Shown: positions 950-7,293, numbered from the stretch's first letter. The stretch: 47,909 nt of DNA from an uncultured Bacilli bacterium (GCA_963722445.1 CAVRMZ010000032.1:1-47909), one strand, 5' to 3'. Made by a program: numbers and translations. The notes: generated by a model not told the origin, from the letters alone.

Positions 950-1294
950 CTATTCGGCTTCGACTTTGGAAATCTCGATGTCCATCCCCGAGACCGGTAT
1001 AAAATCATTATAAGCTCCGCAGTGCGGGCACTTGCGATCGTTTTTGGCGATGGCGAAAACAAAGCCACATTGGTTGCAACGGCCTTTGGCAACAACCTTA
1101 ACCATTTTCAGTTTGGTCTCTTTGAAGTCCGTATCCTGGATGGCCGCATCCCAGCATTCCATCATGTAGTCCGGAACGACCATGGAGGCTTCCCCCACTT
1201 TGAGGGTAACCGAAAGGAGCTTCGTGATGTGGTTCTTCTCGCAGATCCCTTTGAGGGAATCCAGGAGTTCGAAAACGATCCCCATTTCATGCAT
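950..1294 (-). CDS. hypA: Nickel metallochaperone HypA
   Basis: N-terminal MHE Ni-binding motif, VGEAS loop, CNQC...CPHC zinc finger, 114 aa. Confidence 0.95.
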   Translation of the reverse strand: MHEMGIVFELLDSLKGICEKNHITKLLSVTLKVGEASMVVPDYMMECWDAAIQDTDFKETKLKMVKVVAKGRCNQCGFVFAIAKNDRKCPHCGAYNDFIPVSGMDIEISKVEAE

Positions 1295-1297
1295 GGG

Positions 1298-4150
1298 TTA
1301 TTTGAGAGATTCCTTCTTCGCGTTCCCGAATTTCGAAATATCGTCTTTGTTCACCAGCTTGGTTTTGCCTTCCCCCGTGAAGAGGATCTTGACGTTGCGG
1401 GCTAAGATATGTGGAACGCTTGTCGGGGCGATTTGCTCGTAAACACGGCCTTTGACATCAAATCTCCGCTGGAGGTGAATCGCATCGAACTTGCACCGCG
1501 TCGTGCAAAGGCCGCAGCCCACGCACATGGTCTCGTTAACATAGGTGCGACCGCATTTTAAGCAGCGCTTGGTTTCCGCTTGGACTTGTTCCGCGGAGAA
1601 GACGGCGCGGTCATCGCGCATCTTGTCTTCCACTTCCACATGCTGAACTTCCTGGCGTGGCGTATTATCCCAGCCTTGGACCTCGATGTTGTTTTTATCG
1701 AGAGCATAATTCGCGAGATATGGATTCTGGACGCGACCGATGATAAGGCTCTGGCCTTGGTGGACATAGCGATGCATCGACTCTGCGCCTTCTTTTCCCG
1801 TCGCGATGGCATCGATGGCAAAACGGGCGCCATGGTAGCAATCGCCGCCAGCGAAGATGTCAGGCTCGCCCGTCTGATACGTCAAAGCGTCTGCCTGAAC
1901 GCGGCCACGGGCGACCACCGCTTTGGTCCCGTCGAGAAGATGGCCCCATTCGAAGGATTGGCCGATGGCGGATAAGAAGTATTCGCAAGGAACGGTGATG
2001 ACGTTCGTCTCGTCGTATTGCGGGTTGAATTTATGATCCTGATCGAAAACGGAAGTGCATTTCTTGAGGACGGCTTCTTTAAGGAAGCCATTCTCGTCGG
2101 CGTGGAATTCCTTGACGCCCCAAGAGTTGTTAATCCCGATGCCTTCTTTTTCAGCTTCGGCGATTTCGTCATTAGCCGCGGTCATGATATCCCGGGATTC
2201 AAGGCAATAAAGGTCGACTTTGCCGGCACCCCAGCGGATGGCTGTGCGCGCCACATCGATGGCGACGTTGCCGCCCCCCATGAGCACGACATGGCCATGA
2301 AGCTTCGGCTCGTCGCCAAGATTCACGTGGCGGAGGAACTCCACGCCCGAAATCACGTTCTTGGCATCTTCGCCCGGGACCCCAAGCGTACGTCCGCCTT
2401 GGGCTCCGATAGCCACGTAGAAAGCCTTGTAGCCTTGACCGCGAAGCTGTTGGATCGTGATGTCTTTGCCGACTTCCACGCCGATCTTGAACTCCACGCC
2501 TAGCGCTTTGATGCAGTCGATTTCAGCGGCCACGACATCCTTTTCCAAGCGGAAGGAAGGAATGCCAAGAGTCAGCATCCCGCCTAGTTTGCTTTCCTTT
2601 TCGAAAACCGTGACGGAATATCCGGTTTCCGCAAGATAATAAGCGCAGCTAAGGCCGGCTGGGCCCGCGCCGATGACGGCCATCTTTATGTCGTGAAATT
2701 CCGGATGCTTGATCTTCGGAAGCACACGCGTTTCTTCGCTCATGTCGAACTGAGCCACGAATTTCTTGATTTCATCGATGGAGACCGGCTTTAAATTGCC
2801 GATGGTTCCACGGGTGCAAGCGTCCTCGCACTTCTTATTGCAAACGCGCCCGCAAATAGCCGGTAGCGGGTTTTTGTGCTTAATGAGCTCCAAGGCTTCG
2901 GCATAGCGCCCTTCTTTGGCTAATTCGATGTAGCCCTCGATGGAAATATGAGCCGGGCACGCGACTTTGCAAGGCGCGGTTCCCGTTTCGTTCATGATGA
3001 GTTGTTTGTCGAAACGATAGTTTGGATTCCACTTGTCGGGTCCCCATTTATAGTCATAAGCGCTTTGCGGCTCGGCGACTTTGATCGGGGTCTTGTTCTC
3101 AAGACGCTCGCCCAGTCGGAGGGCGTTCATCGGGCAGACCTCAACGCATTCGCCGCACGCAACGCACTTCTCTGGGTCGACATGGGAAATGTAGTTCGAG
3201 CGGACCATCGTGGCCGTGTGGAAATACTCGCCGGTTCTTAGCGAGAAGCAAGAACAGCCGCAGCAATTGCAAAGCGCATGGGTTTTGGCGTTCCCGTCGA
3301 TGTTTGGTATTTCATGCATCAAGCCGTTGTCTTCGGCTTTCTTGACGATGGCGTAGGCCTCTTCTTTCGTGATGCGACGGGCATGCCCCTGCTTAATGAA
3401 ATCGCGGGCTCCTTCGTTGAACTGGATGCACATATCCTGCTCAAGATGGCCACAGCCTTCGCCCATGAGGCGACGGGAGACGCGGCAAGAGCAAGGCGCA
3501 ACGGAAATATCATCGGCCGTGTCGATGTAATGCTCGATCTTTTCGTTATCTTTGGCTTCGGGGTCAGAGGCGATCGCCGAAGAAATCGGGATCACTCTCA
3601 TGACGCCGTGGCCAGTCGGAAGGTTGCCGGTTAGGGGGATGATGCGTTTGATGGTGTACTGCGCAAAAGATTGGGCGATGATCGGGTTGGCTTCGACGAG
3701 GGGGACGTTGTCGACGAGAGCCTCCATGATGCCCGGCACGAAAATCGGGATATGATAGCCTAACTGCCTTTTCCCATCCAAAAGCGGAAGATCGCGATCC
3801 TCAGGATCGACGCTCATAAGGCCAAGCCAAGAGGCATGGTCCAAGATCGGGGAGATCTCTTCCACGGTCATGTGATTCTTTTTGGCCAATTCCGGGACGG
3901 AATAGTGCTTGCGGAGCTTCATCGTCAGCCCCACCTTGGCTTCCTCATCGCTCACGCAGCACGCCAAAGCGTTATATTCGGGGTCGCCAGGAATGACGTG
4001 AACACCAGGCAAATCCTGAATATGATTGCAGAGTTTGGTAATGATAACCCGCTCTTTTTCGCCATCGGGAAGCGAGGCTTTCTTGGGCCCGTTCTTGTAC
4101 TCGTCCTCAGCGAATTTCTGCTCTAAGCGAAGCTCTGGTTGATCTGCCAT
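1298..4150 (-). CDS. Large Fe-S/FAD NAD(P)-dependent oxidoreductase (GltD/NfnB-like core) with a Cys-rich N-terminal domain
   Basis: CSCR..GCGH..C and CNCCGCSC motifs; CVACGECVEVCP; APCKVACP...ICGRVCNKKCEDAC; GAGPAG; GGGNVAIDVAR; C-terminal RCLKC and CVGCGLCTTRC. AAGGAG SD upstream. Confidence 0.85.
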   Translation of the reverse strand: MADQPELRLEQKFAEDEYKNGPKKASLPDGEKERVIITKLCNHIQDLPGVHVIPGDPEYNALACCVSDEEAKVGLTMKLRKHYSVPELAKKNHMTVEEISPILDHASWLGLMSVDPEDRDLPLLDGKRQLGYHIPIFVPGIMEALVDNVPLVEANPIIAQSFAQYTIKRIIPLTGNLPTGHGVMRVIPISSAIASDPEAKDNEKIEHYIDTADDISVAPCSCRVSRRLMGEGCGHLEQDMCIQFNEGARDFIKQGHARRITKEEAYAIVKKAEDNGLMHEIPNIDGNAKTHALCNCCGCSCFSLRTGEYFHTATMVRSNYISHVDPEKCVACGECVEVCPMNALRLGERLENKTPIKVAEPQSAYDYKWGPDKWNPNYRFDKQLIMNETGTAPCKVACPAHISIEGYIELAKEGRYAEALELIKHKNPLPAICGRVCNKKCEDACTRGTIGNLKPVSIDEIKKFVAQFDMSEETRVLPKIKHPEFHDIKMAVIGAGPAGLSCAYYLAETGYSVTVFEKESKLGGMLTLGIPSFRLEKDVVAAEIDCIKALGVEFKIGVEVGKDITIQQLRGQGYKAFYVAIGAQGGRTLGVPGEDAKNVISGVEFLRHVNLGDEPKLHGHVVLMGGGNVAIDVARTAIRWGAGKVDLYCLESRDIMTAANDEIAEAEKEGIGINNSWGVKEFHADENGFLKEAVLKKCTSVFDQDHKFNPQYDETNVITVPCEYFLSAIGQSFEWGHLLDGTKAVVARGRVQADALTYQTGEPDIFAGGDCYHGARFAIDAIATGKEGAESMHRYVHQGQSLIIGRVQNPYLANYALDKNNIEVQGWDNTPRQEVQHVEVEDKMRDDRAVFSAEQVQAETKRCLKCGRTYVNETMCVGCGLCTTRCKFDAIHLQRRFDVKGRVYEQIAPTSVPHILARNVKILFTGEGKTKLVNKDDISKFGNAKKESLK

Positions 4151-4164
4151 GTTTTTTCTCCTTT

Positions 4165-4842
4165 TTATTTTGCGGTCTTATAAGCATTGACTTGCTTGAC
4201 GAGATAAGCGGCTAACGCATCCATGCCTTCTCCCGTTTTGGCGCTTAATGGGAAGAAAGCGGCATCGGGATTCAGCTTTTTGATTCGCTCTTCGGCTTTT
4301 GGGATATCGAAGTCGAAGACCTTGATCGTATCGATTTTAGAGAAGACGATCGCCTTGCAAACTTTGAACATCAAGGGATATTTGAGGGGTTTGTCATCGC
4401 CTTCGGGAATCGAGAGGATCGCCATGTTGAGAGCCGCCCCCGTGTCGAATTCGGCGGGGCAGACAAGGTTGCCGATGTTTTCGAGGATAAGCAAGTCCAG
4501 GCCTTTCGTCCCGATCCCCTCGCATCCTTCTTGCGTCATCTTGGCGTCGAGGTGGCATTCGCCAGCGGTATGCAGCTGAATCGTTTTGACGCCGGTTTTC
4601 GTTTCGATCGTCTCGGCATCCACCGTTGCATCGATGTCGGCTTCCATGACCCCGATTCTCAGTTTGTCTTTCAAGCGGTTGATCAAAGAGACCAGAAGCG
4701 TCGTCTTTCCCGCGCCGGGGCTCGACATCAGGTTAATCAGAAAAACGCCTTGGCCTTTTAACTTTGCCCGCAGTTCGTCAGCCCGGGCATTGTTATTGGC
4801 AAAAACGCTTTGTTTAACGGTAATAACACGAATTTTGTCCAT
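4165..4842 (-). CDS. hypB: Nickel-insertion GTPase HypB
   Basis: SSPGAGKT P-loop, GECHLDA, ENIGNLVCPAEFDTG, EGDDKPLKYP, SKID. Start moved to MDKIRV (ATG 4842, AAGGGA SD) because the ORF-track start at 4863 abuts a -10 box. Confidence 0.95.
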   Translation of the reverse strand: MDKIRVITVKQSVFANNNARADELRAKLKGQGVFLINLMSSPGAGKTTLLVSLINRLKDKLRIGVMEADIDATVDAETIETKTGVKTIQLHTAGECHLDAKMTQEGCEGIGTKGLDLLILENIGNLVCPAEFDTGAALNMAILSIPEGDDKPLKYPLMFKVCKAIVFSKIDTIKVFDFDIPKAEERIKKLNPDAAFFPLSAKTGEGMDALAAYLVKQVNAYKTAK

Positions 4843-4863
4843 GAGGTTTTCCCTTGCGGGCAT

Positions 4864-5086: not shown

Positions 5087-7293
5087 CTAGATTTCCCGAA
5101 TCCCGATGCCGGTGAAAAACTTCGCGATCCTATCGTAATACGCATGGGGGCGGGTGCTATCGATATCCCTTCCCGTGACGGAATCGACCATCGAAGAAGT
5201 ATCCGGAACATAAATCACAAAGCCAAAACGGGACCGCGTCAGCAAGACTCGATAGGAATTGTGAATATAACGTTTGGTCTGTTCGGTCTTTGGGACGCGC
5301 CAACCCGTGGTCGGGGCAAACGTTTGCGGAACCCATTTGATGCCATCCCAATAGAAATCGAGATCCCAGCAAACGCAGGCTCGATCCAATTCGAGGCCTT
5401 CGATGCTGAATTCGCTCATGACGGTCTGCATGCTATTGGATGACTCTGGATCGCTGCTCGGGGCGAAGAACCATTTGTCCATATCCGGGAAACGCTCATC
5501 GGAAGTGATGCCATCGTCTTTCAAACGATCGGCATGGCTGCTGGCGATCACGCCCCAACGGCCACCCGGACTACGATGCTCGTAAAGCCACATCTTCGCT
5601 TTTTTGTAATCGCGAGAAAGTCGGATCTGATAGCCAGCGGCTTCTAATTTCGCCTCGCTTTGGGCCGCTGCTGGAATATCGCCTGAAAGGATAGCCTCGG
5701 TAAACTCATGAAGGCAATCCCCCGTGACGTTACGAAGGGATTTGCTTAAATAAAGATCATTCCATCGCGTATCGAAATGAACGTTAGGGCTTGTCAAAAG
5801 CTGTTCTTTGAGACCATCTTCAAGGGGATCGATTTTCTGATCGATCAGTCCTTTTCCCAAATAGATCTGAAGATCTTTGTATTTCGCGTTCAAGCAAGAA
5901 CGGAACCATTCATTGATTCCTTCCTCTCCGTTATGAATGTCTTGTCCTAGACCAACAAGGCAAACGATGACGCCCCATTTCTGATCATGGTACATTTGGT
6001 TCAATAAGGTCAGCGGCTCGCTTTCGGGGCTCGGGAGGGCAATGACGCCAGAGGAATCTTCGCCATCTTTGGCAGCTTGTTTGGCCTTCTTGGTCTCGTA
6101 TTTCGCCATCTGTTCCTGAGTCCAGGCTCTTTGCGCCTCGTCAAAGACGACGACATGCTCATCGTTGTGCTCTTCGCTCGACAGCGCCTTTTTATAGGAG
6201 GTGAATTGCTCAATCATCCAAGCGATCCCTCGCTTGTTGCCGAGCTTGTCTTTTTGCTCTGCCTTCAAACGACGGATTTCTTCTGGGGCCGAAGCTTCCG
6301 AAAGCTTGATTTCATAGTCGTCTTTGATGGCGTGCCGAAGCGTGGCTTGGAGAACCGTCACCAAGGGCCCATTCCCCGAAACGAAAACCGCTCTGTCTGG
6401 AGGGTTTGCATGTTTAAAGGCAATGTTCAAACCGACAACCGTCTTTCCGGCGCCTGGTACCCCGGCCACGAAAATAATGGCTTTATTTTGAGGGAACGAG
6501 GTTTTAGTCAAGCGAAGGATTGTTTCAACGGTATCCGTCGTATTCGTGATATTGGGATGGGCGGGATCGCATTTGAAGTAATGCCGATAGTCCTCTGAGT
6601 GGGCGCTTAATTGGTCGTAAAGGTATTTTGTCGCCCGAAGAATGTCCGGAGAGGGCTCCGTTTTGGATTTGATCCAATTGAGGCCGCCGTATCGTTTTCG
6701 ATCCTTGCTTGGGGCTTTGGATTCGCTTCGGCGATGGCGGCGATGGCGGTCCTTAATCCTTTTTGACTCGTGGATTGAAGCTCGAAAAGGCCGCTTTCGG
6801 AACGGGACACAGAGGAACGCAAGGCATCGAGATCATAATCATCTTGAATCACCAGAATCGGGCAAACCCAAAGATTCTTGGAAGCTTGGTGAAAATTCTT
6901 TAGATCGTAGGCGTAGCGAATGGCCTGCTCTTGACTGGCTTCCGTGATTTTCTGCTTTCCGGTTTTGAATTCCAAAGAGTAAACGACGCTGTCCATCAAA
7001 AGGATGACGTCCACACGATCGCCTAGACGGTAAATGCTGTATTCGAAGATGATCCACCCTTTCGCGCCGGCGCTTTTGAGGGTGTCCATCAAATCTTCGA
7101 TTTCCTCAGCCCAAGCGTCCGCTTGCTCTTTGGTGATATCTCCGTGGGTTTGTTGACGGTTCTCCTGATAGATCCCGCCAAACACTTCTTTCGCTTTGGC
7201 TTTTTGCTCTTCCTTATTATGGAAATTCAAAAAATCGTCCATCGAGGAAACATAACTGCAGATATCTGGCACGATTCCTTGCTGTTCCATCAT
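5087..7293 (-). pseudogene. Frameshifted nuclease-helicase (PD-(D/E)xK-like N-terminus + DUF2075/Schlafen group 3-like helicase)
   Basis: ORF 6607-7293 has FEY..RVDVILL..LEFKTG. A -1 shift near 6680 continues LNWIKSKTEPSPDILRATKYLY into ORF 5087-6511 (GVPGAGKT, FDEAQRAW, GLELD, YRVLLTRSR). Confidence 0.8.

Follow-up and report, generated by a model that had tools for sequence, protein, structure and literature searches.

The genes hypB and hypA, which encode a GTPase nickel chaperone and a nickel metallochaperone, flank a single large oxidoreductase gene in the genome of an uncultured Bacilli bacterium, and the question raised by this locus is which protein the two chaperones serve and with what metal. 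The locus lies at positions 950-4842 of the window, the whole stretch of 47,909 nucleotides that was analyzed (GCA_963722445.1, CAVRMZ010000032.1:1-47909), which is contig C32 of a MAG (metagenome-assembled genome) that has 1.07 Mb and is 55% complete. A prediction made earlier from the sequence alone (the original prediction) took the sandwiched protein to be the client of HypA and HypB. On balance we consider it probable that this 950-residue protein is a HypAB client carrying a thiolate-rich nickel site, which Fe-S clusters would connect electrically with FAD and NAD(P)H.

The three genes are tightly packed and share the minus strand. The assignment of hypB (4165-4842) is based on TIGR00073, PF02492, and conserved residues, and its product passes the HypB equivalog model TIGR00073 with 229 bits (cut-off 121). 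The hypB open reading frame (ORF) extends to 4863 (4165-4863, 232 amino acids), and the conserved start is Met8 at 4842, as in the original prediction; HypB relatives align from residue 7-8 and M8 is retained in 93% of 61 HypB sequences. A gap of 14 bp separates the hypB stop codon from the ATG of the large gene (1298-4150), and within it a Shine-Dalgarno sequence read from the DNA, AAGGAG (4158-4163, minus strand), is positioned 7 nucleotides upstream of that ATG. The stop codon of the large gene is followed after 3 bp by hypA (950-1294, 114 amino acids), the product of which passes PF01155 (90.5 bits, cut-off 28.9) and falls below the cut-off of the TIGR00100 equivalog model (58 compared with 88.1 bits). 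The ORFs and profile matches bear out the arrangement originally predicted, in which intact hypB and hypA genes sandwich a large oxidoreductase gene with gaps of 14 and 3 bp. The lack of hypCDEF, [NiFe]-hydrogenase, urease, and nickel transporter genes was likewise borne out, with none of these and no other metal-transport gene among the 31 other window ORFs scanned.

Since the genome is only 55% complete, absence from it proves little, and relatives were therefore used. The sample of 41 comprised this genome and 40 relatives from its genus or order, and completeness reaches at least 90% in 28 of them. The N-terminal 383 residues of the large protein gave a strong match in 16 of these genomes. 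Sixteen related loci were taken from 12 relatives, and in every one of them hypA adjoins the homologue (43-78% identical), with hypB inside the fetched stretch in 13. HypA scored over cut-off in 17 genomes, which are exactly the 16 holders of the large gene and one further genome, G038. A pattern scan across taxa, limited to one genome per species, provided 80 loci from Clostridia, Negativicutes, Spirochaetota, Chloroflexota, Thermodesulfobacteriota, Actinomycetota, Bacteroidota, and other groups; 71 have a full-length homologue and 56 have at least 1.5 kb of flanking sequence on both sides. Within 2 kb of the large gene in these 56 loci, hypA is present in 46, hypB in 36, and both in 34, and the exact order hypB-gene-hypA with gaps below 150 bp occurs in 22. 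The original prediction had named homologues mostly unlinked to hypAB as a finding that would speak against it, which is not the case, with hypA or hypB near 48 of the 56. Because the linkage recurs in 16 of 16 related loci and in most loci of other phyla, it is, as judged from gene neighborhoods, beyond chance. From its patchy distribution among the 41 genomes, the large gene may be an accessory trait that provides an electron sink in gut and sediment communities.

Several loci depart from the trio arrangement. In G038 the hypA sequence is a remnant with two TAA stops (G038:C1:57449-57751; L112:7432-7638) and the large gene was not found in that genome, which gives the appearance of a chaperone gene that decayed once its client had been lost. 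A third locus in four genomes of the same genus contains a hypB-hypA pair with no adjoining large gene (L109:7517-8537, L110:8266-9286, L111:5003-6024, and L113:63-1084), and in three of these genomes (G014, G019, and G021) the fetched loci also include two copies of the large gene, one of which is accompanied by hypA alone. No client was found around L109 of G014, the only third locus whose neighbors were scanned with Pfam; the pair there is located downstream of an HTH_3 regulator, with a Schlafen AlbA_2 protein nearby. In Clostridium sp. Marseille-P2415 (L074:6929-14234) a second, partial copy of the large gene (445 amino acids) precedes a hypA that does not differ from the first one, an arrangement that looks like a recent tandem duplication of the end of the module.

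The homologues of the large protein are full-length (about 890-950 amino acids, 52-93% identity) and cover 91-100% of the 950-residue query. Among the loci from other taxa, the homologue in an Acetobacterium woodii MAG (L069) is 49% identical. Residues 1-320 have no Pfam match. This region is made up of a winged-helix-like subdomain (residues about 30-175; 3626-4063), assigned from an AlphaFold2 model and weak winged-helix matches, and a Cys-rich module (residues 176-320; 3191-3625), which its invariant residues mark as the candidate metal site. It is followed by an N-terminal ferredoxin motif, CxxCxxCxxxCP (3101-3190; PF00037 at residues 324-344), the cysteines of which (C329, C332, C335, and C339) are invariant in 86 of 86 full-length homologues, and by a Fer4_20 domain of the dihydropyrimidine dehydrogenase (DPD) domain II type, which holds [4Fe-4S] clusters (2735-2980; PF14691, 75.9 bits, residues 391-472) and in which C394, C398, C433, C437, C441, and C445 are retained in 99-100% of the 86. 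A GltD/NfnB-like Pyr_redox_2 domain for binding FAD and NAD(P)H (1796-2686; PF07992, 84.4 bits, residues 489-785) precedes the C-terminal ferredoxin motifs (C863, C866, C876, C879, C882, and C886; 1439-1564), where a weak Fer4_7 match covers residues about 876-904 and the cysteines are retained in 85 of the 86 homologues. The protein scores below the cut-off of every glutamate-synthase, Nfn, and YgfK-type model of NCBIfam (TIGR01316, 270 with a cut-off of 472; TIGR01318, 255 with 483; TIGR01317, 190 with 448; and, as the best, PRK12771, 424 with 516). These domains, together with the Cys-rich site, fit the layout of Fe-S clusters, FAD, NAD(P)H, and a thiolate site that had been foreseen.

Seven residues of the Cys-rich module, C220, C222, C241, H279, C294, C296, and C301, are invariant in the alignment of all 86 full-length homologues. 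Conservation is partial for C233 (88%) and for H235, C297, and C299 (73% each), and two sequence subtypes can be distinguished: 63 homologues, including the window protein, have the full pattern, and the other 23 carry an acidic residue (Asp or Glu) at position 235 and have neither C297 nor C299. Linkage to the hyp genes is seen in both subtypes. The CxC motifs C220/C222 and C294/C296 are 72 residues apart in the window protein.

The AlphaFold2 model of residues 1-383, with a mean predicted local distance difference test (pLDDT) score of 76.9, shows the winged-helix-like subdomain followed by an alpha/beta Cys-rich module, with block-mean pLDDT values of 80-98 over residues 21-170. Comparison of the whole N-domain model with the PDB by Foldseek gave no match at E ≤ 0.001, and a wide VIA search gave a best Z of 7.1, the listed matches covering mostly residues 29-173 and being weak and mainly to winged-helix proteins. 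When the Cys-rich module was modeled alone (residues 176-345, pLDDT 73), the best VIA Z was 3.8, with no chain at Z ≥ 5, and the best Foldseek E was 0.65. By sequence, the PDB returned ferredoxin-motif matches only, and the clusters obtained from the ESM Atlas, of about 270-410 amino acids, were all either unnamed or of the ferredoxin type. The modeled Cys-rich module thus matched no solved structural relative, which does not in itself make its fold a new one. Prediction of a complex between the N-domain and HypA resulted in a score of 0.56, the best of three controls scoring 0.00, with at least 71% contact agreement between runs and a partner pLDDT of at least 84. Of 80 solved complexes, 58 reached the mark for this score, as did 2 of 110 mismatched pairs; only 7 of the 80 did so with values of 0.60 or below, a range that includes both passing mismatches. 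The predicted complex provides weak support for the large protein being the client.

The Cys-rich module also occurs together with a ferredoxin in standalone proteins, of about 420-436 amino acids in Acetobacterium (26-33% identity, e.g. G059:C1:2670553-2671428) and about 350-390 amino acids elsewhere. A similar protein is the ferredoxin encoded in the isr operon described below, the first 270 residues of which align with IsrA according to Kronen et al. (PMC10134865).

The MHE and zinc residues of HypA and the P-loop and CH..C residues of HypB are the nickel-handling residues of these proteins, and they are kept in the sequences studied here. In 76 HypA sequences H2, E3, and the zinc cysteines C73, C76, C89, and C92 are invariant and M1 is present in 96%; in 61 HypB sequences linked to the large gene the P-loop S48-P49-G50-x-G52-K53-T54, C103, and C135 are present in 100% and H104 in 95%. 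A quick maximum-likelihood tree of HypA (84 sequences, 113 columns) placed 80 rows on one side of a branch with a Shimodaira-Hasegawa-like approximate likelihood ratio test (SH-aLRT) value of 94, not starred. Those 80 include all rows linked to the large gene but one, plus five unlinked rows. The four rows on the other side are the hydrogenase-linked HypA of Paraclostridium ghonii, a lone Sporomusa HypA, a lone Desulfobacterales HypA, and a Syntrophobacter row, the supposed large-gene neighbor of which is a 33%-identical partial ORF at a contig end. The P. ghonii hydrogenase cluster has HypA beside the large and small subunits, HycI, HypE, HypD, and HypF. In P. ghonii and in Treponema sp. HNW the large gene has no hyp neighbors, and since the unlinked HypAs of these two organisms fall inside the side of the tree that is linked to the large gene, they probably act in trans. 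When ten HypAs were compared with TIGR00100, only the hydrogenase-linked one passed (95.3 bits), the six linked to the large gene scoring 58-82 and three other unlinked ones 69-84. The tree and these scores support a dedicated HypA clade apart from hydrogenase-linked HypA.

No other known client of HypAB was found. The [NiFe]-hydrogenase large subunit PF00374, the group-4/NuoD-type subunit PF00346, and Prismane/carbon monoxide dehydrogenase (CODH) were absent from all 41 genomes, and so was HypD, with HypC, HypE, and HypF not searched separately. Urease alpha did not score over cut-off in any of the 41 (one weak match below cut-off in G017), nor did Lar_N in any of five genomes (three weak matches below cut-off). 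PF00374 was also absent from five further trio-bearing genomes, namely an A. woodii MAG, Metaclostridioides mangenotii, Terrisporobacter mayombei, Anaerosporobacter mobilis, and Kineothrix alysoides. The other finding named in advance as contrary, another genomic locus with a hydrogenase or urease dependent on the present hypA and hypB, was thus not encountered, as far as the 41 genomes go.

The large protein belongs, by its likeness to the published description, to an IsrA-like family. Kronen et al. 2023 (mSystems, PMC10134865) described IsrA, a putative isoprene reductase of Acetobacterium wieringae ISORED-2, with its "clade 9" homologues. IsrA (901 amino acids) is encoded in an isoprene-induced five-gene operon, isrA-hypA-hypB-fdx-hypA, in a genome reported to lack [NiFe]-hydrogenase and hypCDEF, and the neighborhood co-occurrence among 988 homologues is 0.73 for HypA, 0.56 for HypB, 0.21 for TetR, and 0.4 for DUF5692 (PMC10134865). 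These authors proposed that IsrA is the nickel target, with a Cys6 "cluster V" as the nickel site at the end of a substrate tunnel, and likened the Cys6 site to P-type and double-cubane clusters (PMC10134865). In strain Y, the identical protein was reported to be expressed at a high level (Jin et al. 2022, PMC9765523). In a Pelotomaculum enrichment given isoprene, hypA was up about 373-fold and hypB about 585-fold, and the same preprint (10.64898/2026.02.25.708027) still calls for biochemistry of isrA-like proteins; conversion of isoprene to methylbutenes by IsrA is, according to both accounts, unproven in vitro (PMC10134865; 10.64898/2026.02.25.708027). The hypothesis of a HypAB client with a nickel site was therefore already published in 2023 and the window protein is a further member of the family, so that the system is not new and uncharacterized, as the original prediction had it. 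What is new here is that HypA and the large gene co-occur in an all-or-none manner within one lineage, that seven residues are invariant and two subtypes exist, that HypA forms a separate clade, that pairs probably act in trans where the large gene has no hyp neighbors, and that no solved structure matched the Cys-rich module.

In the mechanism that we propose, electrons would pass from (or towards) NAD(P)H via FAD and then through the [4Fe-4S] clusters of Fer4_20 and of the N- and C-terminal ferredoxin motifs, and the path would end at the N-terminal Cys-rich site formed by C220, C222, C241, C294, C296, C301, and His-279. HypB, through its GTPase activity, and HypA, through its nickel-binding MHE N terminus, would serve as dedicated maturation factors that most likely insert nickel at or beside the Cys6-His site, resulting in a nickel-containing Fe-S center that reduces the substrate. 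Our best guess for the substrate in this Bacilli MAG is an unsaturated compound with a C=C bond other than that of isoprene, which would serve as an electron sink. The linkage, the co-occurrence, and the lack of another client make the large protein the most likely client, as originally claimed; the nickel itself is the part of that claim that stays unproven. A more far-reaching version is possible, though we hold it only tentatively: the Cys6 site and His-279 may form a Ni-Fe-S center unlike that of any known nickel enzyme, for the maturation of which a dedicated HypA/HypB clade would suffice with no need of HypCDEF, the family would represent a new class of nickel enzymes hydrogenating unactivated C=C bonds or other small unsaturated molecules, and the protein may act in gut-type Bacilli with small genomes as an NAD(P)H-linked sink for alkenes from the diet or the host.

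Several observations weigh against a nickel-bearing client. CbiM/NikM was absent from all 41 genomes and NicO did not score over cut-off in any of them. Neither hyp gene is nearby in 8 of the 56 full-flank loci. The HypA tree is based on 113 columns with long branches and one confirmed hydrogenase-linked sequence, and the weakness of the predicted HypA complex must be counted here as well. The neighboring genes in the window give no hint of the substrate, which is a guess, and neither metal analysis nor a purified enzyme of any IsrA-family member was found in the literature searched. An unusual all-iron cluster could be bound by the six cysteines just as well.

This last point leads to the alternative that survives best, although we regard it as unlikely: HypA and HypB would mature the large protein without a nickel site, the metal being another one such as zinc, or the Cys6 cluster being all-iron (double-cubane or P-cluster-like), with the chaperones in a structural or gating role. 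The CH..C site of HypB also binds zinc, which is consistent with such a role. The absence of the CbiM/NikM and NicO transporters and of published metal data points in the same direction, as does the resemblance to P-type and double-cubane clusters noted by Kronen et al. (PMC10134865). Against this alternative, the MHE N terminus of HypA and the metal residues of HypB are kept in the sequences linked to the large gene, and nickel could enter through unspecific or uncharacterized carriers, DUF5692 adjoining the module in other taxa. To our knowledge, every known function of HypA and HypB concerns nickel.

DUF5692 is a multi-pass membrane protein of about 307 amino acids (PF18948, 468 bits) that is encoded beside hypB, the large gene, or hypA, with 25 ORF matches in 23 loci (e.g. 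L125:9609-10532 in P. ghonii, L030:5072-6079, L053:4238-5173, and L069:3180-4160). In P. ghonii it adjoins the isolated hypB-hypA pair. It could be the missing carrier of nickel or of the substrate; it was not found in the genome of the window by tblastn and scored over cut-off in only 2 of the 41 genomes.

That the window protein is specifically an isoprene reductase, as has been proposed for IsrA, is very doubtful, despite the shared family and architecture. According to PMC10134865, isoprene was not reduced by Acetobacterium strains with homologues about 47-49% identical to IsrA, for which other substrates are expected. The N-domain of the window protein is itself only about 43-47% identical to the Acetobacterium homologues, and the window does not have the five-gene isr layout with its extra ferredoxin and second hypA. 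Among 27 Acetobacterium genomes searched, 15 full-length homologues were found and an isr-type operon was not seen in any.

It is highly improbable that the hyp genes serve a different, unlinked nickel enzyme and owe their placement to co-regulation or chance inheritance. This explanation can draw on the 55% completeness of the genome, which also counts against the large protein being the client, on the hypB-hypA pairs located away from any large gene in some genomes, and on the chance that a nickel enzyme of an unrecognized kind exists. It has to contend with the searches described above, in which the hydrogenase large subunit, HypD, urease alpha over cut-off, CODH, and PF00346 were found in none of 41 genomes and Lar_N over cut-off in none of five, with the confinement of HypA to genomes holding the large gene (plus the broken copy in G038), with linkage that extends across phyla, and with the separate HypA that P. 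ghonii keeps for its hydrogenase. It is barely credible that we are dealing with a common GltD/NfnB-type subunit, belonging to glutamate synthase or to a bifurcating Nfn complex, for which the hyp neighbors are irrelevant, since the Fer4_20 and Pyr_redox_2 domains of the protein and its NCBIfam matches to gltA, gltD, and related models are offset by scores under the cut-off throughout, by the additional N-terminal region of 380 residues, with its invariant cysteines, and the additional ferredoxin at the C terminus, and by the absence of a GltB or NfnA partner among the window ORFs.

If nickel is confirmed in the large protein or its relatives, one more class would be added to the nickel enzymes by the IsrA family, which would also provide the first known flavo-Fe-S reductase client of HypAB. 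The family is widespread in anaerobes, and few biological systems carry out its proposed chemistry, the reduction of unfunctionalized C=C bonds. Mutagenesis and metal analysis can be aimed directly at the residues and clades that were defined here.

The rest of the window is a chromosomal origin region with dnaA, dnaN, recF, gyrB, gyrA, yidC, jag, and mnmE. Between 39030 and 47819 the genes recF, dnaN, and dnaA on the minus strand are followed by yidC, jag, and mnmE on the plus strand, which is the classical origin-region order, and the replication origin should be near 43.1-44.1 kb of the window. Directly 5' of hypB, at 5087-7293 on the minus strand, are genes for a 474-residue Schlafen group-3-like helicase (PF09848, 192 bits) and a 228-residue product with no family match, which may be a defense-type gene pair. 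A scan of the window for promoters and terminators gave counts at shuffle level, with one promoter-like site upstream of hypB (5037-5010, minus strand). No RNA sequencing run was listed as holding the sequence, and only one DNA run was (0.06 share of words).

The guanidine hydrolase GdmH, which the original prediction invoked for the shared idea that a HypAB-like pair is dedicated to an adjoining client other than a hydrogenase, is an arginase-fold dinickel hydrolase (PMC11410670), unlike the redox Fe-S flavoprotein here, and the GhaA/GhaB precedent is unconfirmed, the term "GhaA" occurring 0 times in the accessible text of PMC11410670. In common with [NiFe]-hydrogenase maturation, the window HypB passes TIGR00073 and HypA keeps the MHE motif and the zinc Cys4 site; in contrast to it, HypD, the large subunit, and PF00346 are missing from the 41 genomes, and HypA scores under TIGR00100 and is on a separate side of the tree. 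The NfnB, GltD, and DPD domain II flavoproteins share the Fer4_20 and nested FAD/NAD(P)H domains with the window protein, which differs from them by its Cys-rich N-terminal region, C-terminal ferredoxin, hypAB linkage, and lack of a partner subunit. With respect to the known nickel and Fe-S folds, namely the acetyl-CoA synthase A-cluster, CODH, and the double-cubane proteins, the model of the Cys-rich module came no closer than the best VIA Z and Foldseek E given above. The closest counterpart is IsrA (VUZ27132.1; compared from its published description), which likewise has about 900 amino acids, a family-less N-terminal region of about 270-320 residues, and the same order of ferredoxin motif, Fer4_20, FAD/NAD(P) domain, and C-terminal ferredoxin. 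The CxC motifs C180/C182 and C254/C256 of IsrA are 72 residues apart, the same spacing as between C220/C222 and C294/C296 in the window protein, and IsrA also has hypA and hypB neighbors in a genome without [NiFe]-hydrogenase, with a reported range of the family that includes "Tenericutes" and Firmicutes. In contrast to the isr locus, the window has the order hypB-gene-hypA, with neither a second hypA nor a gene for an N-domain ferredoxin, and its host is a Bacilli MAG with a small genome rather than an acetogen, with a substrate that is probably different.

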